A stretch of 64,000 nucleotides of DNA. It comes from Candidatus Dojkabacteria bacterium (GTDB lineage Bacteria > Patescibacteriota > Dojkabacteria > SC72 > JAFGCJ01). The notes under the pieces were generated by a model that ran no database searches, was not told the DNA's origin, and saw only the letters and a program-made list of their open reading frames with translations. The number at the start of each line of letters is the position of its first letter. The first letter of the stretch is position 1. Position numbers and translations under genes: made by a program. Of the stretch, positions 4,517-56,953 are shown one piece after another. The DNA lies in contig JAFGIK010000003.1 in NCBI GenBank assembly GCA_016929645.1, forward strand, positions 6,913 to 70,912. Direction: 5' to 3'.

Positions 4517-5980
4517 ATGAAGCACAAAAAAGAATTAAATAATAATGAAGAAAACTTTCAGAAGATTTTTACGATTTGCCTGTTTGCTTTGTTTGGAGTT
4601 ATTTTGTTTGTTCGGACAATATTAATAACTAATCATAGTGACTTTCTAAATACTTATAAGTACTTTACCAATGACAGTTATATGTGGATTGCTAATGGCA
4701 TATACTATTTTCGCGACAAAGCTATTGCGTATCCTAACCTAGGTTTGTCATTAGTAATCAAAATTTTATGGAATATCAAAGCGATAAGTATCCTTCCTTA
4801 TATATATTCCAGTATGCTTTTTTTGATAATCTTTTTTGTAAACAGATCTATTTATATACTAAATAAGAAAAAGAATGCTTTTTTTGTCTCGACTGTGGTC
4901 ACTATTGCAATGATGATTAATTATGATTTACTAGACTTTTCAAAGTATATTCTTGCGGATATCTTTGCTCATGCCTTTATTGCTATTTCGACTTATTTTG
5001 CAATAAAGAAGAAATTAAATTTGACCTTTCTTTTTTTAGGAATATCTGCACTTTTTCAAAATTATGCCTATTTTATAGCAACGATTTGGATCTTTCTTTC
5101 ATTCTGGGAATTTTTTAAGGAGAAAAAGCTAGATTTTAAATCATCGATTAAGAAAACTTTTTTGCTTGGCTTTGTATTTATCATCCCTAATTTACCTGTT
5201 CTTCTATATAAATTTATTGAATTTGGTAATCCTCTCTACACTAAGGTTATTCAGTTCCAACTCTTAGATTTTCATACAGATTCGATATTTTTTTATATTG
5301 TAAATCTAATTGATATCTACACTTTTCCTGTTATCTGTTTAGTCTTGTTTATGATAGCTATTCATGCGTTTCAAGGAAAATTTTTCAAATTTAAGTATCT
5401 TTATTCTGGATTATTGTGGGGGCTGTTTTTTTGGATATTCTGCTACGACTGGAATGATAAACGCTTTATGCTATATATACTACCCTTTGTTTACTTGATT
5501 GCTGGCAATGCAATGTCATATATTATTAATTTGATGGAAAAACTAAAGGATATAAGAGGGGCATTTTTGTTTTTCTTAATATCTATTCTATTTCTTCATT
5601 CTTTCAATAATGTTTCAGGATTCTTGACTCCTAATCAGGTTGTATTATTTCCTGATCTATCGGTAGCTTTTGAAAGACACCACAACGGTTCGAGTGGTGA
5701 TAATATAGATACATCTTTCGAGTTTCAGACGTGTAGCTATAAATCTATTGTAGAAAGAACAATTATAATTGATGAGTTCTCTAATAAAGATTTTTATCAG
5801 GGTTCCAAAAATGTATTTTATGTATACAGTGAATTTATTGATGATCGATATGATTATAAGAATAATTCAATATGTATATTACCAGAAGAGGACTTTGACA
5901 TGTATGTATTTAATTCTGTACTGAAAATTAAAACAGGAAAGTATTTAACAGATTTAGAATTGATTGAGAATTGTAAGTAA
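4517..5980 (+). CDS. polytopic membrane protein, possible ArnT/PMT-like glycosyltransferase or oligosaccharide polymerase
   Basis: More than 10 predicted hydrophobic segments, a large hydrophilic C-terminal domain, and embedded in a glycosyltransferase cluster. Confidence 0.45.
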   Translation: MKHKKELNNNEENFQKIFTICLFALFGVILFVRTILITNHSDFLNTYKYFTNDSYMWIANGIYYFRDKAIAYPNLGLSLVIKILWNIKAISILPYIYSSMLFLIIFFVNRSIYILNKKKNAFFVSTVVTIAMMINYDLLDFSKYILADIFAHAFIAISTYFAIKKKLNLTFLFLGISALFQNYAYFIATIWIFLSFWEFFKEKKLDFKSSIKKTFLLGFVFIIPNLPVLLYKFIEFGNPLYTKVIQFQLLDFHTDSIFFYIVNLIDIYTFPVICLVLFMIAIHAFQGKFFKFKYLYSGLLWGLFFWIFCYDWNDKRFMLYILPFVYLIAGNAMSYIINLMEKLKDIRGAFLFFLISILFLHSFNNVSGFLTPNQVVLFPDLSVAFERHHNGSSGDNIDTSFEFQTCSYKSIVERTIIIDEFSNKDFYQGSKNVFYVYSEFIDDRYDYKNNSICILPEEDFDMYVFNSVLKIKTGKYLTDLELIENCK

Positions 5981-6889
5981 TCATTTAAAGACTTTGTGTT
6001 TCGCAGCTCTGAATTTTTTAAACAAGGTCCATATTGATTTGTAAAAAGATGAATTTTGTAAAATATCAAATTCCATAAGTTCTCTTTGATATTTTTCCTT
6101 TTCTCTCATAAGTTCTGCGTTTTGTTTCTTTATTAACAGAAAAGATTTGTCAGCGACTAACATTGGTTTAAATTTGATGTTTATCTCTTCCCTTTTTACT
6201 ATCTTGTCTGATGGTTTAACTCTAAATATATATTGATAAGCTTGTGATTGAATGTCGCTTAATTTATTTACAAATCTGCTAGAAATCTTTAATCCTACAT
6301 TTTCCAACATTGATTTGATAATTTCTCTTGGTACATCTCTTTCAACATATTTTTTTTCAACTATTATATAGCCGGATTCTTTTAAAATATCTGAAAAGGA
6401 TTTCAGTGTGAAATAATGTAAGTGTGTATTATCTAAGATTCCCGTTAATTCAGGGTCGAAACTACCATTCAATAGTTCTAATCTGATAGATTGATGTGCG
6501 ATATTTGGTATAGATATAAGAATTTCCCCGTTAGGGTTTAGTATTTTTTTTGTATTCATAAGGATTCGGCTTGGATTTACTGTATGTTCAAGAACATCCG
6601 CAAATATTACATAGTCAAATTTTTCTTTTATCAGATCGAAAGTTATATCCTCATCAAGACTATTTGTCCAGACCTTTTTACAAATTTTTTGAGCCTTTTG
6701 CGCAACGGATTTATTGATTTCTAGGCCGTAAACTTCGCATTTTTTATTTTCTTTTAGTAATTTGCATAGACTTCCTGAATCACAACCCATATCTATTATG
6801 CGAGTAGATTCTGCAACCCAGTTATATATAATACTTAAGGAATCATTAGAATTATCAAGATCTATTTTTCGAACAGAGTACTTACTCAT
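5981..6889 (-). CDS. class I SAM-dependent methyltransferase
   Basis: 'IIDMGCDSGSLCKLL' (motif I) and 'VIFADVLEHTVNP' (motif II/post-I). Has a C-terminal coiled-coil-like tail. Confidence 0.75.
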   Translation of the reverse strand: MSKYSVRKIDLDNSNDSLSIIYNWVAESTRIIDMGCDSGSLCKLLKENKKCEVYGLEINKSVAQKAQKICKKVWTNSLDEDITFDLIKEKFDYVIFADVLEHTVNPSRILMNTKKILNPNGEILISIPNIAHQSIRLELLNGSFDPELTGILDNTHLHYFTLKSFSDILKESGYIIVEKKYVERDVPREIIKSMLENVGLKISSRFVNKLSDIQSQAYQYIFRVKPSDKIVKREEINIKFKPMLVADKSFLLIKKQNAELMREKEKYQRELMEFDILQNSSFYKSIWTLFKKFRAAKHKVFK

Positions 6890-13387: not shown

Positions 13388-15244
13388 ATGATTTATTTAA
13401 TTTTCATTACACTTTTAATTTTTGGATATTTTATTTCATCTCAGATTTTAGAAAGAAATAAAGTATTCAGGTTTCTTGCAATTGTCTTTTCTTTGTATGT
13501 ATTTTTCACATTTTGGTTTAATTTCCTTGGGATTTGTGTAGATTTCCTGTTTTTTGTAATGATCATTTCTTTTTATGATGTTGTAGTATCTGTGATTGTT
13601 CTACTGAAAAATAGTTTTGATCTCAATAAAATCCTTAAGCTTCTGATTAAGAGTAACTTACAAGAATTCAATTTTGGATTTGATAAATTTTTGTTAATTC
13701 TTGTTATTTTAAGTTTACTTGTATCTCTCTTATACTTTGGATCTAGTCATTTCGGTCCTCAGTTCGAATCATTAGACGCATCGCTTCACTATCTTCTAGG
13801 ACGGAGATTTTACGAAGAAGGTTTTATTCAGTATTTTTCCAAAAGTATTTTTTTCCCAGAAGCAACCAATATTTATTCTTATCCATTTGGTCATACTGTT
13901 CTTTTGAGTCTTTTTTTTCACGTGTTCCCAAGTATGGATCAAATTGCGACATTTAATATTTTTCATATTTTCTTTTTTGTCTTAATTAATTCTTATTTCT
14001 TCTCTGTTGTTCAAAGATTTTTAAAATTCAAAAACAAATTAGTGTTGCTAATTTTCATACTAATGCAAACTCTTGGTTTCTTTTTTAATTTAATGATCAT
14101 GGGATTTACTTCTCAACTGGTTGGGCTCTTTTTTTTACTTGCGGCTATTGATGTTTACTCATCGAAGAAATTTCGAAGTCACATATTAGGTGTTGCTATT
14201 CTAGGCTTGTTGGTTTCTAGTATTACGACAACATACTTTTACTGGCTTGCGATATTTGGTATTTTTCTTTTAATTGATAATTTGAAAAGTGTGCTGGCAC
14301 TAGGTATCAAAAAATATCTGAACAACAATTGGAAATTTATTTTATCGATTTTGTTTTTTTCTGTAATTTTCTCATTACATTATTTGTTGGTGATCTTTAA
14401 AAGTTCGATGATCGCATCAGCCAAGTCAGACGGTTCAAGTTATAAAATATTTCTGAGTAATTTTATCCTTTTCCTTCCTTTGATAATCAACTATTTTGTT
14501 TCTGAATTGAGGTTTGTCAAGAAACAAAATAAATTCCAGTCACTTATTCTTGCAGTATCAGTGTTTGTATGTGTTCTTGGATTTTTTTATGTGTTAAATT
14601 TTATTGAGCCATACACATTTTCAAAAAGTTTTTACTTATTTTTCCCGCTAATTTATGCAATTTCTCTAAAGGAATTAGAAAAGATTAGAGATTCACTAAA
14701 TAAAATTATTTATTTTTCAATTATTGGAATACTTTTAATCTTTGTGTTGTTACCATTCTTTGAGACCGATCCAACTTACACGCAAGCAAATTCTCTACAA
14801 CTTAAGTTTGATGATCTTAATGTCAAAGTTTTTGAAATATTTCACCATAATGCCCAGATGACAGTAAACCCCAACGTCCATCCGGTTAATGCATCTGCTC
14901 AAAAGATTGAATTTGCTCAGTCATTTCAACATAAAAAACACAATGGCAAGTCTCTTGATAAGATTGTTGTTGTTGGAAATGATTCTGAGTCACTTTGGTT
15001 CTATTCATTAAGCGATGTATTTCCTCGGGATAAATCAAATAATTACTCAGTGTCAATTCCTCCTAGTCCAGATTATAATGCCTGGATTTCTGGGCGTGAA
15101 AGTGATTATCTGATTTTTATCGACAATAAAGGGAAACTTGATTGGGCCAGAGATAATAATTTTGATATCAGTGAGTTCAAGGTTGTATACAAGGTCGGAG
15201 ATAACTACTTGTTAGAATATAACCCTAAGGTAAAGAAAATTTAG
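13388..15244 (+). CDS. polytopic membrane protein with C-terminal extracytoplasmic domain (possible oligosaccharide polymerase/ligase-like)
   Basis: About 12 hydrophobic helices then a hydrophilic ~150-aa tail; sits inside the glycosylation cluster. Confidence 0.45.
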   Translation: MIYLIFITLLIFGYFISSQILERNKVFRFLAIVFSLYVFFTFWFNFLGICVDFLFFVMIISFYDVVVSVIVLLKNSFDLNKILKLLIKSNLQEFNFGFDKFLLILVILSLLVSLLYFGSSHFGPQFESLDASLHYLLGRRFYEEGFIQYFSKSIFFPEATNIYSYPFGHTVLLSLFFHVFPSMDQIATFNIFHIFFFVLINSYFFSVVQRFLKFKNKLVLLIFILMQTLGFFFNLMIMGFTSQLVGLFFLLAAIDVYSSKKFRSHILGVAILGLLVSSITTTYFYWLAIFGIFLLIDNLKSVLALGIKKYLNNNWKFILSILFFSVIFSLHYLLVIFKSSMIASAKSDGSSYKIFLSNFILFLPLIINYFVSELRFVKKQNKFQSLILAVSVFVCVLGFFYVLNFIEPYTFSKSFYLFFPLIYAISLKELEKIRDSLNKIIYFSIIGILLIFVLLPFFETDPTYTQANSLQLKFDDLNVKVFEIFHHNAQMTVNPNVHPVNASAQKIEFAQSFQHKKHNGKSLDKIVVVGNDSESLWFYSLSDVFPRDKSNNYSVSIPPSPDYNAWISGRESDYLIFIDNKGKLDWARDNNFDISEFKVVYKVGDNYLLEYNPKVKKI

Positions 15245-17643: not shown

Positions 17644-18684
17644 CTAAAGTTTGGGTTCCAGGATCCATAATTCCGAATAGTTATCAATAATTGCAAATTT
17701 CTTCATGTTTGAACTTGGTGTCAGGCTCATTATTCTTGTGAATGGCATGAATGATATTTGATCTTTAATTAATCTATGTGCATCAAAGATCAGTAAATTT
17801 GCTTGATTCTTGCTTTCGTAAATACATGAAGTCAGATTCACATTGTCAGTCATTGATGAAACTGAACAAATTTCATTTGTCTCTTGTATGAAAGGACTTC
17901 TTCCTGGCTGTATGATTAACTCATTTCTCATTGTTGCTACTTTTAGCACAGGGAATTTATTGCTTATAAATTTAATATCTGTAATAAATTTACTGGAAAC
18001 CGGGAATTCTGCCGTTTTCAGTGTTTTGGATCTGATATCAAAGACATACAGATTTTTTTCAAGTATTGGTATTGAAGTAACAAGATAAATATGAGATTTA
18101 AATAAGAATATTGGCTTGATTGACTTGCTAAAATCGATTTCTTCAATCAGCTGACCTTTTTGGTTAAACACTTTTGTTGTTGCTGCAATATCTTCAATAT
18201 CGTTTTTGGGGAATTGTTCAGTAGAAAATATATGTTTATTTGAAACAAAGACTTCTGTGTTCACAGGCAATTTCAAAAATGTAGAAATAGTAAATTCTTT
18301 GTCATTGTTGTCTTTATTCAGAATTGTTAGTTTGCTTTCATTCGCACTTTTTTCAAATACATACAATTGATTATTATCGTAAAAAAAATCATCGATACTA
18401 TAGTCTGGTTGCGATGTGTATATTCTTGAAGATTTTCTTTTCTCTGTGTCTAGTATTACTAGAAAACTATTTTCTGAAGCAGCGATCAAATCACGATCAA
18501 TCCATAAAATTTTAGAAGGGTGAATGTTTGTAAAAAAATAGTCATATTGAATAGGTGCAGTGTTAGTGTCTTGAGCCTTCTTATTTGATAGTGAGATTTT
18601 GATTGCAATTGCTGATAATATTAAAATAGAGATTATTACAACAATAGAAGTTTTCTTCTTGATATTTTGGTTTGTCTTTATCAT
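17644..18684 (-). CDS. hypothetical N-terminally anchored extracytoplasmic protein
   Basis: N-terminal TM 'SIVVIISILILSAIAI'; rest predicted beta-rich with no recognisable catalytic motif. Confidence 0.45.
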   Translation of the reverse strand: MIKTNQNIKKKTSIVVIISILILSAIAIKISLSNKKAQDTNTAPIQYDYFFTNIHPSKILWIDRDLIAASENSFLVILDTEKRKSSRIYTSQPDYSIDDFFYDNNQLYVFEKSANESKLTILNKDNNDKEFTISTFLKLPVNTEVFVSNKHIFSTEQFPKNDIEDIAATTKVFNQKGQLIEEIDFSKSIKPIFLFKSHIYLVTSIPILEKNLYVFDIRSKTLKTAEFPVSSKFITDIKFISNKFPVLKVATMRNELIIQPGRSPFIQETNEICSVSSMTDNVNLTSCIYESKNQANLLIFDAHRLIKDQISFMPFTRIMSLTPSSNMKKFAIIDNYSELWILEPKL

Positions 18685-22036: not shown

Positions 22037-25000
22037 ATGTTTAAATTCCTTTCGAATCTTTTTGATTCAAATGAAAAACAATTGAATAAGTATCGTCCAC
22101 TTGTTGAGAAAATCAATGAACTAGATAGTTCTGTCAGTAAATTATCAGACGAGGAACTGTCCCAAAAAACTAAAGAACTAAGAGAAAAACTGGATATTGA
22201 TTTAGAAAAGGCAAGAGATATAAGAGATCCCTTTTTACCAGTTCTTACAAAAGCTGATATAGAAGGTGATACTCAAGATGTAAAAAGGAAATTGGATGAA
22301 GTATTAGTAGAAGCTTATGCGTATGTAAAGGAAGCTGCTAAAAGAAAAACACTACATAAACCTTTTGATGTCCAGGTGCTTGGAGGCATTTTCCTTGCAA
22401 ATGGGTTTGTTACGGAGCTGTTTACTGGAGAGGGAAAAACTCTTGTAGCTACAATGCCATTATTCTTATATGGTCTTTTTGGCAAAAGTGCACATCTTGT
22501 CACTGTTAATGATTATCTTGCAAAAAGAGATGGCGAGTGGTCTGGCCATATTTATAACGCTCTTGGTATGAGCCTTGGTATTATCACGCCTGGTGCTTCG
22601 TATAAGTTTGTTAGTGATGAGGAAATATTAAAGATAAAACCGGAAGAAGCTCAAAAAGGTATAGCAGAACGTAAAAAGATTATTGAAAAAAATGGAAGGC
22701 TTCTTATGAGTTCAATGAATGGTTTGAATCTTGTATCCTGTACTAAAAAAGAGGCTTATGATTGCGATATTGTTTATGGAACAAATAATGAATTCGGTTT
22801 TGATTATCTTCGAGATAATATGTCGAAAAGTCTTGAGCAGAGAGTTCAAAGTCCACTTTTTTACTCAATTGTTGATGAATGTGACTCTATTTTGATTGAT
22901 GAAGCACGAACTCCTTTGATAATCTCTTCGCCAGCAGCTGATACAAATGAACTATACCAAAAGTTTGCTTCAATTGTTAATAACTTAAAAGATGTTGATG
23001 ATTATGTTATTGATGAAAAATCTCATGCAGTAAATCTTACAGAGAAAGGTGTGGATAAGGTTGAAAAACTGCTTGGGATCGAAAATATCTGGGAAAATTA
23101 CGCATATGTTCATCATCTTGATAATGCATTGAAGGCAAAGGAACTTTATAAAAAAGATGATAAATATATTATTAAAGAAGGACAAATTTTAATTGTTGAC
23201 GAATTTACAGGTCGTGTTTTGGAAGGTCGTCGGTATAGCGAAGGTTTACATCAGGCAATAGAAGCAAAAGAAAACGTTCCTATAAAAAAAGAATCAAGGA
23301 CTCTTGCTACTATTACTTTTCAGAATTATTTTCGTTTGTATGACTTTCTTGCGGGTATGACCGGAACGGCATTAACTGAAGCAGAGGAGTTTGCAGATAT
23401 CTATGATCTTGAGGTTATTGTTGTTCCTACCGATAAGCCAGTTATAAGAAAAGATCTACCCGATTTTGTTTTCAGGACTCAGGCAGGCAAGTTTAACGCT
23501 GTTGTTGAAGAAATAAAGGAATTATACGAGTCTGGTCGACCAGTACTTGTTGGTACAACATCTGTTGAAAAATCAGAGTTGTTATCAAGTATGCTTAAAA
23601 AAGATGGTATTCCACACAATGTTCTTAATGCAAAGCAGCATCAAAAAGAAGCAATGATTGTCTCTCAAGCAGGGCAGAAAGGCCAAATCACAATAGCAAC
23701 TAATATGGCTGGTCGAGGAACAGATATCGCTTTAGGTTCCGGAGTAAAAGATCTTGGAGGTTTACATATTATTGGTACTGAACGTCATGAATCTCGAAGA
23801 ATTGATAACCAGCTTCGAGGTAGATCTGGACGTCTTGGAGATCCAGGATCTTCTCGTTTTTATGTGTCATTTCAGGACGATTTGATGAGGTTATTTGGTG
23901 GCGATTCTGTTACGAATTTGTTAGGTAACACTAAAATTGAAGATGATATACCTCTTGAACTTGGAATTGTTGGTCGATCTATTGAGAGTGCTCAGCGAAA
24001 AGTTGAATCCTACAACTTTGATATTCGAAAACATTTGGTTGAGTACGATGACGTGCTTAATCAGCAACGTGAGATTATTTATGACTGGCGTCGAAAAATT
24101 CTTACAATTGTTGCTAAAAATGTTGTTGATAATGAGAGGGAAAAAGATGTTCCTGAATTTGGTAAAAGGGAAATTGATTATGATTTTTCTGTTCTCGATA
24201 GAGAGTTTGCTCAAAATGTATATGATCAATTAATGAATTTTTCATTAAATAATCCTGATACCTGGACAGTTTCATTTGAATCAGAGGATAATGAAGAGGT
24301 TTTAACAAAACCATTGCGTTTATGGATTCTTAAAATCTCGCTCTCACAGGTGGATTTTGTTTTGTCTTCTCAGTTGAAGGATGATGCAAAAATTGATGAC
24401 CTGGAGGAAAGGAATATATTACAGGGATTTCTTGATATTGTCCCTCACGATCTTGCTGATTTTGCAAGCAGAAAAATTGGCTATAAAGGATGGGACGATT
24501 TTTCGGCAAAATTTTACGAGGGAGAAGATATTCAATCAAGGAAAATGGAGCTTGTTCGAGTTATTATCTCAGCATATATATGCCATATTATTAGCCTCAA
24601 AGATGTTGTAATTAGTAATGTAGAAAAACTATTAATCCTTCAAACTATTGATAATCTCTGGGTTGAACATCTCGATTTAATGACTGATCTTCGACAAGGC
24701 ATCACTTTAAGACAATATGCTCACAAAGATCCGCTAGTGGAGTACAAAAATGAGGGTTTTAATATGTTTGATAAAATGCTTAACCAAATTGAAGATAATA
24801 TTGTTAAGAGATTTTACAAAGTCAGACTTGTAAAAAAAACACCTGAGCCTGAGGTTTCTAAGGTGGCCGCACTTCATGAAGCACCTAAACAAAGTCTTAT
24901 TCGAGGAGGTGATAACAGACCTGGTGCTAATGTTTCAAAAATAAAGACTATTAAAAAGTCGGCTAGCGTAGGGCGTAATGACCCGTGTCCTTGTGGAAGT

Positions 25001-25045
25001 GGTAAGAAGTACAAAAAATGTTGTTACCCTCAGTATGGTAAATAG
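22037..25045 (+). CDS. secA: preprotein translocase ATPase SecA
   Basis: SecA N-terminus 'MFKFLSNLFDSNEKQLNKYRPLVEKIN'. DEAD-motor motifs ('MPLFLYGLFGKSAHLVTVNDYLAKRD', 'DECDSILIDEARTPLIIS', 'TNMAGRGTDI'). C-terminal zinc-binding tail 'CPCGSGKKYKKCC'. Confidence 0.97.
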   Translation: MFKFLSNLFDSNEKQLNKYRPLVEKINELDSSVSKLSDEELSQKTKELREKLDIDLEKARDIRDPFLPVLTKADIEGDTQDVKRKLDEVLVEAYAYVKEAAKRKTLHKPFDVQVLGGIFLANGFVTELFTGEGKTLVATMPLFLYGLFGKSAHLVTVNDYLAKRDGEWSGHIYNALGMSLGIITPGASYKFVSDEEILKIKPEEAQKGIAERKKIIEKNGRLLMSSMNGLNLVSCTKKEAYDCDIVYGTNNEFGFDYLRDNMSKSLEQRVQSPLFYSIVDECDSILIDEARTPLIISSPAADTNELYQKFASIVNNLKDVDDYVIDEKSHAVNLTEKGVDKVEKLLGIENIWENYAYVHHLDNALKAKELYKKDDKYIIKEGQILIVDEFTGRVLEGRRYSEGLHQAIEAKENVPIKKESRTLATITFQNYFRLYDFLAGMTGTALTEAEEFADIYDLEVIVVPTDKPVIRKDLPDFVFRTQAGKFNAVVEEIKELYESGRPVLVGTTSVEKSELLSSMLKKDGIPHNVLNAKQHQKEAMIVSQAGQKGQITIATNMAGRGTDIALGSGVKDLGGLHIIGTERHESRRIDNQLRGRSGRLGDPGSSRFYVSFQDDLMRLFGGDSVTNLLGNTKIEDDIPLELGIVGRSIESAQRKVESYNFDIRKHLVEYDDVLNQQREIIYDWRRKILTIVAKNVVDNEREKDVPEFGKREIDYDFSVLDREFAQNVYDQLMNFSLNNPDTWTVSFESEDNEEVLTKPLRLWILKISLSQVDFVLSSQLKDDAKIDDLEERNILQGFLDIVPHDLADFASRKIGYKGWDDFSAKFYEGEDIQSRKMELVRVIISAYICHIISLKDVVISNVEKLLILQTIDNLWVEHLDLMTDLRQGITLRQYAHKDPLVEYKNEGFNMFDKMLNQIEDNIVKRFYKVRLVKKTPEPEVSKVAALHEAPKQSLIRGGDNRPGANVSKIKTIKKSASVGRNDPCPCGSGKKYKKCCYPQYGK

Positions 25046-25829: not shown

Positions 25830-25903
25830 GGACCCTTAGCTCAGCTGGCTAGAGCACACGATTCACATTCGTGGGGTCACTGGTTCGATTCCAGTAGGGT
25901 CCA
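25830..25903 (+). tRNA. tRNA-Val (anticodon CAC), CCA not encoded
   Basis: Acceptor GGACCCT/AGGGTCC, D-arm 'GCTCagctggctaGAGC', anticodon stem CACGA/TCGTG with loop 'ttCACat', T-arm 'ACTGGttcgattCCAGT', discriminator A. Folded manually. Confidence 0.9.
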
Positions 25904-25947
25904 ATGAGGTCAAAATCCAAAACACATTTGGATTTTGACCTCATTGG
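25901..25947 (+). terminator. 21-bp perfect hairpin immediately 3' of tRNA-Val followed by T-rich tract
   Basis: 'ccaatgaggtcaaaatccaaa-acaca-tttggattttgacctcattgg' then 'tttcttt'. Left arm overlaps the last 3 nt of the tRNA. Confidence 0.5.
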
Positions 25948-26063
25948 TTTCTTTATGAGCGAACCAAGGTTCGCAACTGGAGGCCCGAGAATCCGAGCTA
26001 GCGAAGGATGATCGGCAGCCGACAGGAGTACTTCGAATACGAGAGATCACATGAATGAGAAGT

Positions 26064-26085
26064 GATTCCAGTAGGGTCCAATGAG
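26064..26085 (+). repeat. 22-nt direct repeat of the tRNA-Val 3' end (copy 2; copy 1 at 25887-25908)
   Basis: 'gattccagtagggtccaatgag' occurs at 25887-25908 (T-loop G57 through discriminator plus 5 nt) and again at 26064-26085, bracketing a ~155-nt insert. This is an att-site-like duplication. Confidence 0.8.
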
Positions 26086-26257
26086 AAATTTACGGTCAAT
26101 TGATAATGTTAAGTAAACCTTTTGATATAGATTCATTTCGTATTTTTACCTCAAAACATGTCAGTGTTATAAAATATGATTCTCCTTTTTATTAACTTTT
26201 GTGGTATATTGTTGTTTTCGCTATAAATCCTGAAGCTAAACTATAAATTCAAACATA

Positions 26258-44162: not shown

Positions 44163-45191
44163 TTAGTCCTTGATTACTACAATTGCCATATTTTCAAGGT
44201 TTTGAAATCCTGTTCTAAACTCCGGATAACTTACTGCATCGTATGTCCCAAATCCGACATCCATAAGGTAGATTTTTTCGGGATCTATTCCATGGATGAC
44301 CAAGGCATGTTCATCTTCTATCCATGGATTTTCTTCTCCATCTGGACCGATCATTGTCCCAACTGTCTTGGGCTTAAAATCATTTGATACCCATACAATT
44401 ACTGGGTAACCTTGACGTACGTAATTGAATAATTCATCTACGTCCCAGTTTGTTTTAGAAATACTGGAAGAAAACCCATGATTGGCAAGTACTTTATATA
44501 CTGGTTCATTGTATACGCCATATCCATCAACATAGACAACTTCGCCATCAATATTTCCGACAAATGAACGTTGAGGGTTTCCCCAGTGAAGATTTCCTTG
44601 ATCATCAAAATATCTAGTACTTGTTGTATCAGCACCAATTTCTGCTATGATCTGATCCTCAGTAACATCTACTCCAAAATATTTCATCAGAATGTGTGCA
44701 CTTGCTGACTCACAGGAAGCTGGATGGGTTTGTTTGTATGTTTCGACATTCATGATTACTGTTGAGGGATATGTGTTGAGTCTTGGTGGATTTGAGGTTG
44801 AGTTTATCTGGTCTTCTAGCTCTAAAATCTTGAGTTGCAATGAGGTAATTTCTTGTTCATAATCTTCAATCTGTGATTCTTGTTCTTCTTCTGTGTAACA
44901 ATCTTTAGCACGTTGTATTGCTATGAATTTGGTAACGAAATAATAAATCAGGAATGAGAGAGCGGCTAATGCTAGGAAAAGCGGAACTATCATCCATCTA
45001 TTTTTTTCGTTTTTAGCCTTTGTTGGCTTTTCTTCAACGAAATTGATATTTTGTGGAAGATCGAAATTCTTTGTCTGTTGTGGATTAATCATATGATCTA
45101 TTATCTCAATTAATTTGCTATTTGCAATAGGAATCCTTCGTATTATATAGTTAAAGATATAAATTAATAAGTATTTTTTATGGCTGATCAA
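44163..45191 (-). CDS. membrane-anchored protein with C-terminal C39-like (papain-fold) cysteine peptidase domain
   Basis: TM 'WMIVPLFLALAALSFLIYYFV', heptad coiled coil, then 'YKQTHPASCESASAHILMKYFGV' (Gln...Cys nucleophile context) and later His/Asp candidates 'HALVIHGID'. Confidence 0.55.
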   Translation of the reverse strand: MISHKKYLLIYIFNYIIRRIPIANSKLIEIIDHMINPQQTKNFDLPQNINFVEEKPTKAKNEKNRWMIVPLFLALAALSFLIYYFVTKFIAIQRAKDCYTEEEQESQIEDYEQEITSLQLKILELEDQINSTSNPPRLNTYPSTVIMNVETYKQTHPASCESASAHILMKYFGVDVTEDQIIAEIGADTTSTRYFDDQGNLHWGNPQRSFVGNIDGEVVYVDGYGVYNEPVYKVLANHGFSSSISKTNWDVDELFNYVRQGYPVIVWVSNDFKPKTVGTMIGPDGEENPWIEDEHALVIHGIDPEKIYLMDVGFGTYDAVSYPEFRTGFQNLENMAIVVIKD

Positions 45192-45992
45192 AATAAAAAG
45201 GGAAAATCAGAAATGAAAGATAATAAGAGTAAAAAATCTTCCGTCAATGTGCTTGTATCTCTACTGATAGCAATTCTTGCACTTATTGTCGGCTGTGCTG
45301 GTGGAGCATTGGTTTTATGGCTTGTTGTGAATTTCTCAAAAGATGCTTTCTGTTCTGAGTATAATGTTCCTGAGGTTAGTGATAGTGAAGACATATCAGA
45401 ACCAGAGAGTAATAATGATGACAATGAGTATATAGGTGAGAGCTATAAACTTCTGGTTGATGATGGGTATGTTACTGTTCCTGAAGGATGGAAGGTTACT
45501 GAAGTAGATAGTTATTTTGATTATTTGAGTGATTCAGAAATAGCTGAGATTGGTCTTTCTGGCGGTGCCTGGCCAATTCATGATTACAATCAGATCGTAA
45601 TTTCAAACGACGATGCGTCTATCACCTATGAGAGACAGGCTCTATATGTCCCTGGTGGATTCGGGGGCACGTCCTCCATGCTGAATGACTCATTTACTGT
45701 TGTTGTTGAGCCAACAGAAGTTTTGGACTATGATAATTCTGATTCAGATATGTATGGTTTTGCTGTAAAGGAAGTTAATTCTAATGAATTTGAATATCAT
45801 ATTATTTGCATAAATGAATATTATGATCCAGCTTCTAGTAATCCAGATGAATCTGAATTTTTTGATCTTTCTGCAGGACTTGAGGTATACCCGATATTGG
45901 TACTTGAAGGAGATGAAACGTATAAAAATGTAGCAGAGACATTTCTAGCCGAGGCTTGTATCGAAAATTCATCTGGATGGTGTGAACAATAA
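45180..45992 (+). CDS. hypothetical membrane-anchored acidic extracytoplasmic protein
   Basis: TM 'VNVLVSLLIAILALIVGCAGGALVLWLVV' then a D/E/S-rich domain. Alternative start at Met-12 (45213) would avoid the divergent overlap. Confidence 0.5.
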   Translation: MADQNKKGKSEMKDNKSKKSSVNVLVSLLIAILALIVGCAGGALVLWLVVNFSKDAFCSEYNVPEVSDSEDISEPESNNDDNEYIGESYKLLVDDGYVTVPEGWKVTEVDSYFDYLSDSEIAEIGLSGGAWPIHDYNQIVISNDDASITYERQALYVPGGFGGTSSMLNDSFTVVVEPTEVLDYDNSDSDMYGFAVKEVNSNEFEYHIICINEYYDPASSNPDESEFFDLSAGLEVYPILVLEGDETYKNVAETFLAEACIENSSGWCEQ

Positions 45993-52853: not shown

Positions 52854-53390
52854 ATGGCTGTTTATCGGGATGAGGTTGCAATCCTAAAATCAAGAGATAT
52901 TAACGAATATGACAAGATCGTTACGTTATTTGGCCGTTGGCATGGCAAGTTTAGTGCCATTGCAAAAGGTGTTCGAAGGCTTTCAAGCCGAAAGCGAGGC
53001 CATCTTGAGACTTTTAATCTTTGCCGAGTCAGTTGTGCCCAGGGTAAGAGTCTGGATTTAATTCTTGAGGCACAATCGTACTTTTCCATTGATACCAAGG
53101 ATACAAAATATGATGAATATGAAAGGGTTGGGTTTGCAGGTTTTGTTGTAGATAAATTTGTCCCTGACAATGTGCAGGAGGGTAAGATTTTTGATATGTG
53201 GACTGACTTTATTCAGGGGCAACACGGCAAGACCGAGACTATCGATTTTATTCTAAATATCCTTTTGTTGCAGGGTTTTGTAAGCGAAGAAAATATCGAA
53301 AAGTTGAGACTCGGTCAGGTGAATCAAGTGAATCAGCTGACCTTTGAAAAAATAAAGTTATTTGTTCAAAAAATTATCCATGAAATTTAG
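52854..53390 (+). CDS. recO: DNA repair protein RecO (compact form, no C-terminal zinc finger)
   Basis: 'AVYRDEVAILKSRDINEYDKIVTLFGRWHGKFSAIAKGVRRLSSRKRG' matches the RecO N-terminal OB-fold consensus (LRSRDYGEADRIL.LFTREHGK...AKGARR..SR). Confidence 0.7.
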   Translation: MAVYRDEVAILKSRDINEYDKIVTLFGRWHGKFSAIAKGVRRLSSRKRGHLETFNLCRVSCAQGKSLDLILEAQSYFSIDTKDTKYDEYERVGFAGFVVDKFVPDNVQEGKIFDMWTDFIQGQHGKTETIDFILNILLLQGFVSEENIEKLRLGQVNQVNQLTFEKIKLFVQKIIHEI

Positions 53391-53545
53391 TTTTTACTGT
53401 GATTTTAGTTGAGAATTGATGTTTTGTTTGCTTGATTTCGTTACCTTTGATATGTTTTGCCATAAATGCTTTTCTGCTTTATAATTGCTTTGTTACCAGG
53501 TTTACTGCCTGTTTGCTTCATTATACAAACGAAAAGTCATTTTTC

Positions 53546-53618
53546 GGGCGCGTAGCTCAACTGGCAGAGCAAGCGACTCTTAATCGCTAGGTTCAGGGTT
53601 CGATTCCCTGCGCGCCCA
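53546..53618 (+). tRNA. tRNA-Lys (anticodon CTT), CCA not encoded
   Basis: Acceptor GGGCGCG/CGCGCCC, D-arm 'GCTCaactggcaGAGC', anticodon stem AGCGA/TCGCT with loop 'ctCTTaa', T-arm 'CAGGGttcgattCCCTG', discriminator A. Folded manually. The minus-strand ORF 53537-53791 is spurious. Confidence 0.9.
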
Positions 53619-53653
53619 AGGGAAAAGAGATCAAAATTGATCTCTTTTCCCTT
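53618..53653 (+). terminator. 16-bp perfect hairpin starting at the tRNA-Lys discriminator
   Basis: 'aagggaaaagagatca-aaat-tgatctcttttccctt'. Confidence 0.45.
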
Positions 53654-53759
53654 GAAATGTATGTAATCGAACAAGTTCGTAGGGACGTATCCCGAGAGCG
53701 AAGCGATCGGAAGATACGACCACATGCAATTCAGAGACGAGTGTAATGAGTCCTGAATT

Positions 53760-53784
53760 GATTCCCTGCGCGCCCAAGGGAAAA
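53760..53784 (+). repeat. 25-nt direct repeat of the tRNA-Lys 3' end (copy 2; copy 1 at 53602-53626)
   Basis: 'gattccctgcgcgcccaagggaaaa' at 53602-53626 (T-loop G57 through discriminator plus 8 nt) and again at 53760-53784. Confidence 0.8.
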
Positions 53785-53926
53785 ATTTCATACGAATCTC
53801 TAAATCATATTAAAATTCACGGAAAATATTCATTCCTAGTTTTACTTAATATTCCAAAAACTAATAATTAGTCGAGCAATTATTTTTCCGTTTTGTGTGG
53901 TTGTTATTTGATAAATATATCTAACA

Positions 53927-54619
53927 ATGCTTGAATCCAACGAATCTTTTGACTGGTTACAAATTGGCTTACAATCTGGTCCTATGACTGAGGTTACGTC
54001 TGCTATACGTGCTGTTTCTTTGGGGATTGGTGGTGAGGGACTTCAATTTATTGAGAATGCCTGCAAATATATTCATTTAAACTTTGCAACTCCGAAGGAA
54101 AAGCCTGACAAGATGAAAAGAACAGCTGATGAAATTTTATCTGGGGCACCTGATCCGTCAATTGGTAATAAAAAACCGATTGCACATTGTACCGAGTGGG
54201 GTAAGTTGTTGAGGACGATTTTTCTTGCAAAAGGATATCCAACAATATGGGTAAATAGTATTCCTGAGGATTGGATACGAGCAGAAGGAGAATGGTCAAA
54301 TCCTGATAATTACAGTAATCATGTTTTTCTTGATATTTATGTAAATGGTGGATGGGTTACATTGAATACCACAGGGGCTCCCGATCTTGAAAAGGGGCTT
54401 ATCCGAAGAGGTGCAACAGATAATGAGAAATATTACTTAGACACTAATGCCGGTCGAACTTATTATAGACCGTACATGAGAGGTTTAGATCATATGCATG
54501 CATGGACTCCAGATGAACGACTAATTAGCTCATCGGATAAGAAGCAATGGCATATTTTTATTAATCATGAATTTCCTGAACGGATTGAGCGCTTGGAGAG
54601 AAACCCAGTAGATTATTGA
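53927..54619 (+). CDS. transglutaminase-like cysteine peptidase superfamily protein
   Basis: 'GNKKPIAHCTEWGKLLRTIFLAKGYPTIWVNSI' (G-x-C...R..GIP-like core) and 'NHVFLDIYVNGGWVTLNTTG' (His then Asp) fit a Cys-His-Asp transglutaminase core. Confidence 0.5.
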   Translation: MLESNESFDWLQIGLQSGPMTEVTSAIRAVSLGIGGEGLQFIENACKYIHLNFATPKEKPDKMKRTADEILSGAPDPSIGNKKPIAHCTEWGKLLRTIFLAKGYPTIWVNSIPEDWIRAEGEWSNPDNYSNHVFLDIYVNGGWVTLNTTGAPDLEKGLIRRGATDNEKYYLDTNAGRTYYRPYMRGLDHMHAWTPDERLISSSDKKQWHIFINHEFPERIERLERNPVDY

Positions 54620-55912: not shown

Positions 55913-56953
55913 TTACTCTGCATTATCATATAAATTTTCAATCTCTTTGCTTGATTTCTCAAGATCTGTCAGTCGGTCAAGATAATCAATATATGTATTA
56001 TCAAGATACTCATAAAGACTATCAGATAAATCTTGCAACCCTGTGTCATAATTATCGTTAGCAGTGGATTCTTCTTCAACTATGGCATTATATGCATTTG
56101 CATCTTGATTCTGTAATGCTGTTTTCTCTCTCTCGTAAAAAGAAATCCAGGTATTTAAATGGTCAATATATTGTTGTACCCAATCAAGGTAAACTTGTTT
56201 GTGATCATCGGTCTGGGATGTCGAGTCGATATTCTCAACATCTGTTTTTAATGCTTCCATCTCTGCAAGTTCATCTTTTGTAGCTTGCATTTCAGTATCT
56301 ATTTCCTCTATGGTTGCTCGATCACTGTCATAATACTGTTCATATGTAGCAGCAATTTCATCGTATTTTGCATCAATAAGTAACATCTCACTGTAATATT
56401 TTGTATATTCCTTATAATCGCTAACTAGAGACTCTGCATCATCGTAATATGAGGTTAATGCCGAATCAAGTTCGTCAACTGAGCTTGGTGCCGAATCTGG
56501 AATATTATCCTTAGCATCTTTTATGTCACTAAGTAATGTGTCGGCATCTTTACTAATTCCGACTAAAATCTCGCTTTGTTCTGTGTATGATTCAGAAATT
56601 TCCTCATATTCAAATACATAGTCTAGCTCATTGTCAATTACGGTTGTTATGTCAGCATTTACTTGATCAAAATCATCCTTGGTTGCATCGATATACTCAC
56701 TTTCCGTTACTGATGTTCCAAAAGTTGAACTTCCCCCAGTTTGCGTGAGTAGGAGAAATCCTCCTGTAATACAACAACAAAGAAGAAGTAAAGCCCCAAC
56801 AACAACCAGAACAATTAATAATGTATTGTTCTTTTTCTGTGGTTGTGCTGAAGTTGTTGATGCTGTCTGAGTTGCTTGTGGTGAAGCAGTCTGACTTGTA
56901 CTTGAAGTTGGTACATTAATTGTACCTGAATTTTGATTTGGAGCAGATTCCAT
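55913..56953 (-). CDS. membrane-anchored acidic coiled-coil protein with S/T/Q-rich N-terminus
   Basis: Low-complexity 'TSSTSQTASPQATQTASTTSAQ', TM 'LLIVLVVVGALLLLCCCITGGFLLL', then a ~250-aa D/E-rich heptad-repeat region. Confidence 0.5.
   Translation of the reverse strand: MESAPNQNSGTINVPTSSTSQTASPQATQTASTTSAQPQKKNNTLLIVLVVVGALLLLCCCITGGFLLLTQTGGSSTFGTSVTESEYIDATKDDFDQVNADITTVIDNELDYVFEYEEISESYTEQSEILVGISKDADTLLSDIKDAKDNIPDSAPSSVDELDSALTSYYDDAESLVSDYKEYTKYYSEMLLIDAKYDEIAATYEQYYDSDRATIEEIDTEMQATKDELAEMEALKTDVENIDSTSQTDDHKQVYLDWVQQYIDHLNTWISFYEREKTALQNQDANAYNAIVEEESTANDNYDTGLQDLSDSLYEYLDNTYIDYLDRLTDLEKSSKEIENLYDNAE

Follow-up and report, generated by a model that had tools for sequence, protein, structure and literature searches.

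What process leaves an exact copy of a tRNA gene's own 3' end a short distance behind it, and does so at two different tRNA genes of the same bacterium? The question is raised by a 64-kb stretch of chromosomal DNA (hereafter the window, meaning the whole stretch analysed) from an uncultured member of Candidatus Dojkabacteria, in the Patescibacteria/Candidate Phyla Radiation (CPR). According to ARAGORN and Rfam, the window contains exactly two tRNA genes, tRNA-Val(CAC) and tRNA-Lys(CTT), and both are followed by the same arrangement of a perfect hairpin, a noncoding GC-richer core and a second copy of the tRNA 3' end. A preliminary description of the tRNA-Lys locus had proposed a site-specific, recurrent process. 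We find that the arrangement is real, statistically sound and lineage-specific, and from it we infer mobility, expression and the kind of enzyme responsible. Our tentative answer is that the two loci carry diverged copies of a miniature, gene-less integrative cassette.

Architecture of the two tRNA loci

The features of the tRNA-Lys locus, with its candidate promoter, are as follows.

53457-53485, + strand: sigma-70-like promoter candidate of tRNA-Lys, TTGCCA-17-TATAAT, 11/12 consensus matches, about 60 nt 5' of the tRNA
53546-53618, + strand: tRNA-Lys(CTT), complete cloverleaf, no encoded CCA (ARAGORN; Rfam RF00005, 71.7 bits)
53602-53626, + strand: direct repeat copy 1 (attL-like), GATTCCCTGCGCGCCCAAGGGAAAA, from T-loop G57 to the discriminator plus 8 nt of trailer (repeat search; 25/25 identical to copy 2)
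53617-53654, + strand: perfect hairpin, 18-nt arms (53617-53634, 53637-53654) separated by 2 nt, no T-tail
53655-53667, + strand: 13-nt AT-rich linker AAATGTATGTAAT, read from the sequence; the Val linker has 12 nt
53668-53679, + strand: P2 hairpin CGAA-CAAG-UUCG, a conserved block (chain of shared k-mers; structural alignment)
53680-53685, + strand: UAGGGA as the 5' strand of P3, its complement being the T-stem 3' strand UCCCUG within the repeat (53763-53768); present in the minimum free energy (MFE) structure of 53645-53784
53686-53718, + strand: P4 hairpin CGUAUC / CCGA / GA / GC-GAA-GC / GA / UCGG / AA bulge / GAUACG (folding; structural alignment)
53721-53759, + strand: conserved CACAUG, then P5 hairpin CAAUUCAGAGAC / GUCCUGAAUUG with the conserved AAUGAG in its loop; the insert ends on the right with GAATT (folding; k-mer chain)
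53760-53784, + strand: direct repeat copy 2 (attR-like, displaced tRNA 3' fragment), exact copy of 53602-53626

The sister locus at tRNA-Val is organised in the same order.

25830-25903, + strand: tRNA-Val(CAC), no encoded CCA (ARAGORN, Rfam)
25887-25908, + strand: direct repeat copy 1, GATTCCAGTAGGGTCCAATGAG, 22 nt, from G57 to the discriminator plus 5 nt (repeat search)
25901-25947, + strand: perfect hairpin, 21-nt arms at 25901-25921 and 25927-25947, then TTTCTTT; terminator-like
25948-26063, + strand: core of 116 nt, 50% GC against 34% in the window and 24-25% in the flanks; right end GAAGT
Parts of this core, + strand: linker of 12 nt; P2, 25960-25973; P3 5' strand, 25976-25981; P4, 25982-26020; CACATG, 26048-26053; AATGAG, 26054-26059
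26064-26085, + strand: direct repeat copy 2, exact copy of 25887-25908, then AAATTT

Both repeats start at T-loop G57, right after a shared GGTTC, and end 8 nt (Lys) or 5 nt (Val) beyond the discriminator, so that the equivalent breakpoints seen in the preliminary description are confirmed. The same applies to the tRNA-Lys gene itself, on whose position ARAGORN and Rfam agree, and to the exact 25-nt repeat, which was recovered by the repeat search. The gene-less insert between the repeats measures 133-155 bp and the start-to-start spacing of the repeats is 158 bp at Lys and 177 bp at Val. The unequal repeat lengths (22 versus 25 nt) fit a block of identity better than a fixed staggered cut, and a target-site duplication of fixed stagger was dropped on this ground.

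At the Lys locus the left arm of the hairpin begins within the tRNA end and the repeat, with the last acceptor base and the discriminator, and the final 10 nt of copy 2, CAAGGGAAAA, have a complement in the right arm of the hairpin (53645-53654) as well. The hairpin had been reported as 16 bp at 53618-53653; it is indeed perfect, but its arms are longer by the coordinates given above. The GC-richer stretch reported behind it has the expected length: 53655-53759 comprises 105 nt with 44.8% GC, against 33.9% in the window and 24% in the right flank. An AAATTT after the right-hand copy, also reported for both loci, is present at Val, whereas at Lys it overlaps the last A residues of the repeat and copy 2 is followed by ATTTC. 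The Val hairpin has the layout of an intrinsic terminator (20 pairs plus TTTCTTT); the Lys hairpin, having no T-run, was not called a terminator. No σ70-type promoter-like site for the core was found at either locus, and at Lys none lies between hairpin and core. The Lys insert is identical, base for base, in an independent assembly (Logan contig of SRR13394437, L160).

Several smaller observations concern the same sequences. The Logan assembly of SRR13394437 breaks in the tRNA-Lys anticodon loop (one contig, L001, ends at about 53581 and L160 starts at about 53585), which may reflect a de Bruijn graph branch from another tRNA or strain sharing half of the gene. A 13-nt direct repeat, TGTTTGCTT[G/C]ATT, at 53425-53437 and 53510-53522, brackets the tRNA-Lys promoter region. 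An antisense open reading frame (ORF) of 84 aa with an ATG start (53537-53791, - strand) spans tRNA, hairpin, core and repeat and is almost certainly spurious. At Val, AATGAGAAGT (26054-26063, just left of copy 2) resembles AATGAGAAAT (26080-26089, reaching from the end of copy 2 into the right flank) in 9/10 positions; the AATGAG that it contains is a conserved core block at Lys too, but has no match there to the Lys trailer.

Relatedness of the two inserts

The preliminary description listed a series of blocks shared by the two cores (CGAAC..GTTCG, CCCGAGA, GCGAAG, GATCGG, ATACGA, CACATG, AATGAG), and all of them occur in the same order at both loci. The kinship that it proposed on this basis stands as a chain of short matches, which far exceeds chance, but not as a plain local alignment, which for the cores is not significant (z 1.8). 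Searching the window by nhmmer and blastn with one insert as query did not bring up the other (E > 100). The colinear chain of exact k-mers (k=5) covers 46 nt of the cores, compared with 23.2±5.1 nt in dinucleotide shuffles, and none of 2000 shuffles reached the observed value. It is composed of CGAAC, GTTCG, CCGAG, AGCGAAG, GATCGG, ATACGA, CACATG and AATGAG. Natural segments matched for GC gave a similar picture: the observed chain score was reached by 0/3000 segments for the Val core and by 1/3000 for the Lys core, and we attribute this single exceedance (score 84) to the copy of the locus itself in L160. For the composite pattern CCCGAG-N(0-11)-AGCGAAG-N(1-4)-GATCGG the window has exactly two occurrences, against an expectation of 0.

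The similarity is not confined to the cores. The hairpin left arms of both loci share GAG[AG]TCAAAAT, the right ends of both inserts read GAA[GT]T, and hairpin and core are joined by linkers of nearly equal length (12 nt at Val, 13 nt at Lys). The two inserts are thus related along their whole length. Their shared linker length and hairpin-core junction indicate that the common ancestor was already gene-less. Direct reading places the conserved blocks in different reading frames at the two loci, which indicates that the core is noncoding and that conservation acts at the nucleic-acid level; a peptide-coding core was ruled out for this reason. We also considered whether the core derives from the tRNA or contains a fossil of the other locus's repeat; the corresponding alignments were no better than shuffles (p 0.13-0.6).

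Folding of the core

The + strand of both inserts folds beyond shuffles (z -3.6 and -2.65) and the - strand more weakly (z -2.1 and -1.1). MAFFT misaligns the cores; the shared structure model comes from a hand-made structural alignment of the two loci. One model fits both cores with all pairs canonical, and compensatory changes are found in P4a (2), P4c (1) and P3 (3), although with only two sequences this covariation carries no statistical weight and is suggestive only. P2 reads CGAA(C)-CAAG-(G)UUCG in both. P4 has an invariant centre, CCGA-GA...GA-UCGG, with a 2-nt bulge on the 3' side, while its outer stem is GGC/GCC in Val and CGUAUC/GAUACG in Lys, and its inner stem AUCC/GGAU in Val and GC/GC in Lys, pairing being kept in each case.

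Two further elements involve the repeat. In P3, the six bases just 5' of P4 (ACUGGA in Val, UAGGGA in Lys) pair with the T-stem 3' strand of the repeat (UCCAGU and UCCCUG, respectively); P3 could represent either a pairing or descent from a T-arm. P1 is formed at both loci between the distal part (8-10 nt) of the right hairpin arm and the final 8-10 nt of copy 2. P1 exists because the repeat exists, being complementary by construction, as is part of P3. The Lys MFE structure of 53645-53784 includes P1, P3, P4 and P5, the last bearing AAUGAG; the Val model lies 4.4 kcal/mol above the Val MFE. When the whole read-through transcript is folded, the tRNA 5' acceptor strand pairs with copy 2 in the MFE structure at both loci; pairing with either copy is possible, and we regard this as a by-product of the repeat. 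Overall, the predicted structures favour a folded single strand, the + strand, and they fit both a mini-element and an RNA.

Orthologous sites in related genomes and searches for further copies

The orthologous tRNA genes of relatives were located through synteny. These relatives are distant, with 62-67% identity in SecA and about 50% in RecO. In three of them (loci L003, L005 and L006) tRNA-Lys(CTT) lies 3' of the glycosyltransferase-RecO block and is followed by an ordinary flank or a gene, with no hairpin, core or repeat. In two others (L162 and L163) a nearly identical tRNA-Val(CAC) lies 3' of SecA, again with no hairpin, core or repeat after it. The insert is therefore lineage-specific, having no counterpart in five related Dojkabacteria lineages, and is not a fixed tRNA trailer; a universally conserved gene feature, which the preliminary description had kept as an alternative, is thereby removed.

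The surroundings of tRNA-Lys also differ. In the relatives (L002/L003 3001-6242, L005 and L006) a gene for a surface-type protein of 700-760 aa lies between recO and tRNA-Lys. The window lacks this gene and has tRNA-Lys 155 nt after recO (52854-53618), which indicates that the tRNA-Lys neighbourhood was rearranged or suffered a deletion in this lineage. In GCA_054920395.1 a 90-aa GIY-YIG (T5orf172-like) gene (L002/L003 5904-6176) ends inside the start of tRNA-Lys (6167-6242); this may be a gene of homing-endonuclease type that borders on the same tRNA gene in a relative free of the insert. Downstream of this tRNA (L003 6243-6400) are two short T-loop-like strings, GGGGTTCGAGAATC and AGGGTTCGATATTG, which may be decayed tRNA fragments; no exact 3' fragment is present there. 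CCA is encoded by tRNA-Val of L162 (14393) and by tRNA-Lys of L003 (6242) and L006 (5948), and not by the tRNA genes of L163 and L005.

Searches beyond these sites gave no further member. A hidden Markov model built from the hand-made structural alignment found no third copy in the window or in 14 Dojkabacteria loci. A scan of a genome collection with CCCGAGA-N(0-12)-GCGAAG-N(1-4)-GATCGG gave, among the 119 matches listed, only GC-rich chance matches, none with neighbouring blocks, a result that does not establish absence from the genomes. A tighter pattern applied to metagenomes gave 34 matches, all in GC-rich sequence (48-74% G+C) and none with neighbouring blocks. Both scans demand exact blocks defined from two sequences and detect close relatives only. 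In viral contigs, the core pattern and both repeats found no match except three 17-mers in GC-rich sequence with no tRNA nearby. In phage records, BLAST with a 4-kb query containing the Lys insert matched the tRNA only and the Val insert had no match, and in plasmid records neither insert had a match. Rfam 15 reported only the tRNAs at the gathering threshold; at E ≤ 10 nothing was found in the cores, and the hairpin gave spurious matches of the microRNA-precursor type. Y RNA-like, tmRNA-like and T-box RNAs were considered as candidates and had no Rfam match.

Origin of the inserts

An intact tRNA gene accompanied by a same-orientation fragment of its 3' end is the signature used for mapping integrated elements; the incoming DNA brings along a tRNA fragment from which the gene is rebuilt, while the original end is pushed aside (Islander, PMC4383910). 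The crossover subsites known from such elements include the anticodon loop, the T loop and the T/acceptor junction, and an attP site measures about 250 bp (PMC4383910). The insert with one repeat (158-177 bp) is of the order of one such site. We therefore favour, tentatively and with somewhat less than half of our confidence, the reading that the two loci are diverged members of a family of non-autonomous miniature integrative cassettes, flanked by attL/attR-like repeats of the T-loop class, which supply a replacement tRNA 3' end and a hairpin.

Each locus would then be the footprint of a Campbell-type site-specific integration of a gene-less mini-cassette into the 3' part of a tRNA gene. The circular unit would consist of the tRNA 3' segment (G57 to +5/+8), the perfect hairpin, a linker of 12-13 nt and a GC-rich foldable core of about 90-105 nt. 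Recombination within the segment shared with the tRNA would rebuild an intact gene from cassette sequence (copy 1, followed by the cassette hairpin, which could act as a terminator or processing site of the tRNA) and would displace the original tRNA 3' end to the far side, where it is seen as copy 2. The recombinase would be encoded elsewhere or would since have been lost, and would most plausibly be a tyrosine integrase of the T-loop sublocation class. The core would be under selection as a folded single strand, either RNA or single-stranded DNA in recombination, part of it mimicking the T-stem 5' strand of the target. The perfect pairing of the hairpin with host-specific trailer bases may have come about by quasipalindrome template-switch correction, a known mutational mechanism. 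Under this model an empty Lys site would read tRNA-Lys...CAAGGGAAAA then ATTTCATACG, an empty Val site tRNA-Val...CCAATGAG then AAATTTACGG, and the circle junction ...CTGAATT-GATTCCCTGCGCGCCCAAGGGAAAA-GAGATCAAAAT.

The equal breakpoints, the related inserts and the empty sites in relatives thus support the site-specific, recurrent process of the preliminary description; its mobilisation in trans finds no such support: the window encodes no recombinase, and neither a third copy, nor a polymorphism between empty and occupied sites, nor an excised form came to light. Several points weigh against an integrative cassette. The 64-kb window encodes no recombinase, and the only copies known are two, from one metagenome-assembled genome. 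For recombination between duplexes, a circle of 158-177 bp would be very small. The parts specific to the target (the repeat, the hairpin's distal right arm and the 5' strand of P3) differ jointly between the copies, which a simple hop from tRNA to tRNA does not explain. The cores are strongly diverged, yet each pair of repeats is perfect, which calls either for recent and independent arrivals or for upkeep of copy 2 through selection or gene conversion; the perfect repeats would be accounted for if members that had already diverged arrived recently and independently. Finally, with no σ70-type promoter-like site for the core, its expression is putative.

A mobile origin is also compatible with the view that the insert is a structured small RNA linked to the tRNA, which we consider unlikely though deserving of attention. 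Core and copy 2 (about 125-145 nt) would be produced by read-through from the tRNA, possibly released by RNase III at the 18-21 bp hairpin; P1 would close the ends, the T-stem mimic of P3 would pair with copy 2, and the acceptor 3' strand would be left exposed, giving a mimic, decoy or regulator related to a tRNA 3' half. The core stands out as a GC island from intergenic DNA that is AT-rich, the + strand has the better fold z-scores, and the stems are compensated while loops and bulges (GA/GA, the 2-nt bulge, CAAG, AAUGAG) are conserved. P1 has 8-10 bp at both loci, the tRNA 5' strand is able to pair with either copy in the full-length fold, and, with no T-tail on the Lys hairpin, transcription from the strong tRNA promoter could plausibly run through it. 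However, P1 and part of P3 are complementary by construction, the covariation is statistically weightless with two sequences, the core has no promoter-like site of its own and the Val hairpin resembles an efficient terminator. No Rfam family matches even at E ≤ 10, and the insert is missing from all relatives examined, which argues against a conserved cellular RNA. Rather improbable, in our judgement, is the origin of the inserts as inert scars, that is, two larger related prophages or islands in tRNA-Val and tRNA-Lys, each independently deleted down to its att-proximal ends. The tRNA gene with its displaced 3' fragment and the lack of genes in the inserts agree with it, and the reduced genomes of the Patescibacteria phylum are expected to delete quickly. 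Independent deletions would, however, end differently, whereas both loci have the same hairpin-core junction (12/13-nt linkers) and colinear blocks; this makes two independent island decays unlikely and suggests that the gene-less cassette itself was propagated. The compensatory changes in the stems, which point to selection, and the perfect repeats beside diverged cores also speak against scars.

The sizes of the parts would suit a guide-type RNA resembling TnpB omega-RNA or Cas12 guides, with the core as scaffold (about 105-135 nt), the tRNA copy as a 22-25 nt 3' guide and the tRNA gene as target. The GGTTC before copy 1, absent before copy 2, would be the flank resembling a transposon- or protospacer-adjacent motif (TAM/PAM), and a partner nuclease, a transposase or a nuclease-dead repressor would be encoded elsewhere. 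The scaffold is structured, and TTC precedes copy 1 where AGT (Val) or ATT (Lys) precedes copy 2, a difference that any tRNA repeat starting at G57 shows. We hold this to be very unlikely, as no TnpB, IscB, Cas12 or IS200/IS605 protein is encoded in the window, no guide-RNA family of Rfam matches and the target persists beside its own guide (self-targeting). Still harder to credit is a T-loop intron or alternative 3' exon, in which the tRNA 5' part would join copy 2 and 53602-53759 (158 nt) would intervene at 56/57. The pairing of the tRNA 5' acceptor strand with copy 2 in the whole-transcript MFE at both loci would fit it, but the tRNA is complete when unspliced, no Rfam group I or II intron model matches at E ≤ 10 and the insert falls below the length of the group I introns known. 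Such introns abound in the tRNA genes of Patescibacteria, yet those reported lie at 35/36 in the anticodon loop (PMC13011429); a group I intron was excluded by position, size and the lack of a model match. The probability of an assembly artefact or chance resemblance is close to negligible. The genome is metagenome-assembled and the check in a second assembly covers the Lys locus only; the Logan assembly nevertheless gives the same sequence for that locus, assemblers are not misled by a repeat as short as 25 nt and the insert is unique sequence, while the statistics of the k-mer chain, the GC-matched segments and the composite pattern oppose chance.

Beyond these readings, there is a slim chance that the inserts belong to a class, not described so far, of mini-elements that have no protein, rely on structure and target tRNA genes, or else that the core and the tRNA-derived 3' segment together act as a stand-alone guide RNA by which an unlinked effector is brought to tRNA genes. 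In a mini-element of this class the folded strand would offer a T-arm mimic (P3) and a distal right arm complementary to the trailer, the target would be chosen by base-pairing or mimicry, and the displaced tRNA 3' end would be rebuilt. The integrative cassette remains the reading that we prefer. The conserved, compensated fold of the core suggests that the att-proximal DNA or RNA may have a role of its own, such as folded-strand recombination, termination or processing of the tRNA, or a small RNA.

Gene content of the window

The window has a G+C content of 33.9% and a repertoire of housekeeping and envelope genes: SecA, RecO, glycosyltransferases, a type IV pilus-like cluster and a set of the pyruvate:ferredoxin oxidoreductase type (POR family). 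Its RecO (52854-53390) and SecA (22037-25045) are 100% identical to NCBI proteins of the same names from Candidatus Dojkabacteria. The lineage is sparsely sampled; the closest SecA has 67% identity, the closest full-length RecO about 50% and a partial RecO (P0011) 62%. Pfam and NCBIfam searches of the 64-kb window revealed no integrase, transposase, reverse transcriptase, TnpB, IscB, Cas or IS200/IS605 protein.

For six ORFs of considerable size (230-618 aa), neither Pfam nor NCBIfam gave a significant match: 4517-5980, 13388-15244, 17644-18684, 45180-45992, 53927-54619 and 55913-56953. The only sub-threshold NCBIfam match among them belongs to 55913-56953 (E 0.0017), and the one of 230 aa lies directly 3' of the Lys insert. 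Two proteins of 346 aa with no assigned family show no kinship to each other. RecO consists of 178 aa and corresponds to the N-terminal domain alone; in related Dojkabacteria it is also short (173-175 aa), so that its length is a trait of the lineage and not a truncation caused by the insert.

Comparison with known systems

If the preferred reading is true, tRNA-targeted integration is possible with a unit no larger than an att site, and such units can be maintained and can diversify as non-autonomous passengers even where bacterial genomes are among the smallest known. The succession of tRNA, hairpin, core and 3' fragment would also provide a handle for finding the poorly known mobile elements and recombinases of Patescibacteria. 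If the insert is instead a tRNA-linked RNA or a guide, it would represent a new RNA class.

Among small repeated sequences, the insert resembles MITEs (miniature transposable elements with inverted repeats) and other small interspersed repeats (Correia, RUP, BOX, ERIC, REP/PATE) in being 100-200 bp long, noncoding, hairpin-forming, non-autonomous and intergenic near gene ends. Unlike MITEs, its ends (GAGATC.../...GAATT in Lys, GTCAAA.../...GAAGT in Val) are not inverted repeats, the duplication is of variable length (22-25 bp) and starts at a defined tRNA position instead of being a short, fixed target-site duplication, and only two copies occur in 64 kb. With TnpB omega-RNA and Cas12 guides it would have in common a structured scaffold of about 100-140 nt joined to 20-25 nt identical to the target, and a T-rich 5' flank on the target only; it differs in having no effector gene nearby, no IS200/IS605 ends and a target 130-155 nt from the guide on the same DNA. 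The group I introns of Patescibacteria tRNA genes (PMC13011429) come from the same phylum and are likewise structured, tRNA-linked RNA elements with no protein, but they interrupt the anticodon loop at 35/36, match RF00028 and need splicing, whereas the insert follows a complete tRNA and comes with a duplicated 3' end.

Closer parallels are found among integrative elements. The CIMEs of streptococci are cis-mobilizable, att-flanked derivatives of integrative elements that lack recombination genes. The insert is similar in being bounded by att-like repeats, in having no recombination genes and in that it would need an integrase in trans; CIMEs are kilobases long, however, and have a known parent at the same site, while the insert is about the size of a single attP, has two tRNA targets and has no known parent or helper. 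Islands and prophages that integrate into tRNA genes (Islander, PMC4383910) share with it the regenerated tRNA, the exact downstream 3' fragment in the same orientation (25/25 and 22/22 nt), the start in the T loop, a block of identity extending past the tRNA 3' end and the same site empty in relatives. They span 2-200 kb and carry cargo and an integrase (PMC4383910), against 133-155 bp with no ORF and no integrase here, the insert being about ten times smaller than usual integrated elements. Also unlike islands, homologous intervals of the same organisation are found at two different tRNA genes, with a foldable GC-rich core in place of cargo. Pipelines for finding islands drop intervals below 2 kb or without an integrase (PMC4383910), and a class of mini-cassettes would consequently be systematically invisible to them. 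The inserts are best filed as a new, very small and gene-less form of tRNA-integration footprint with a conserved structured core.

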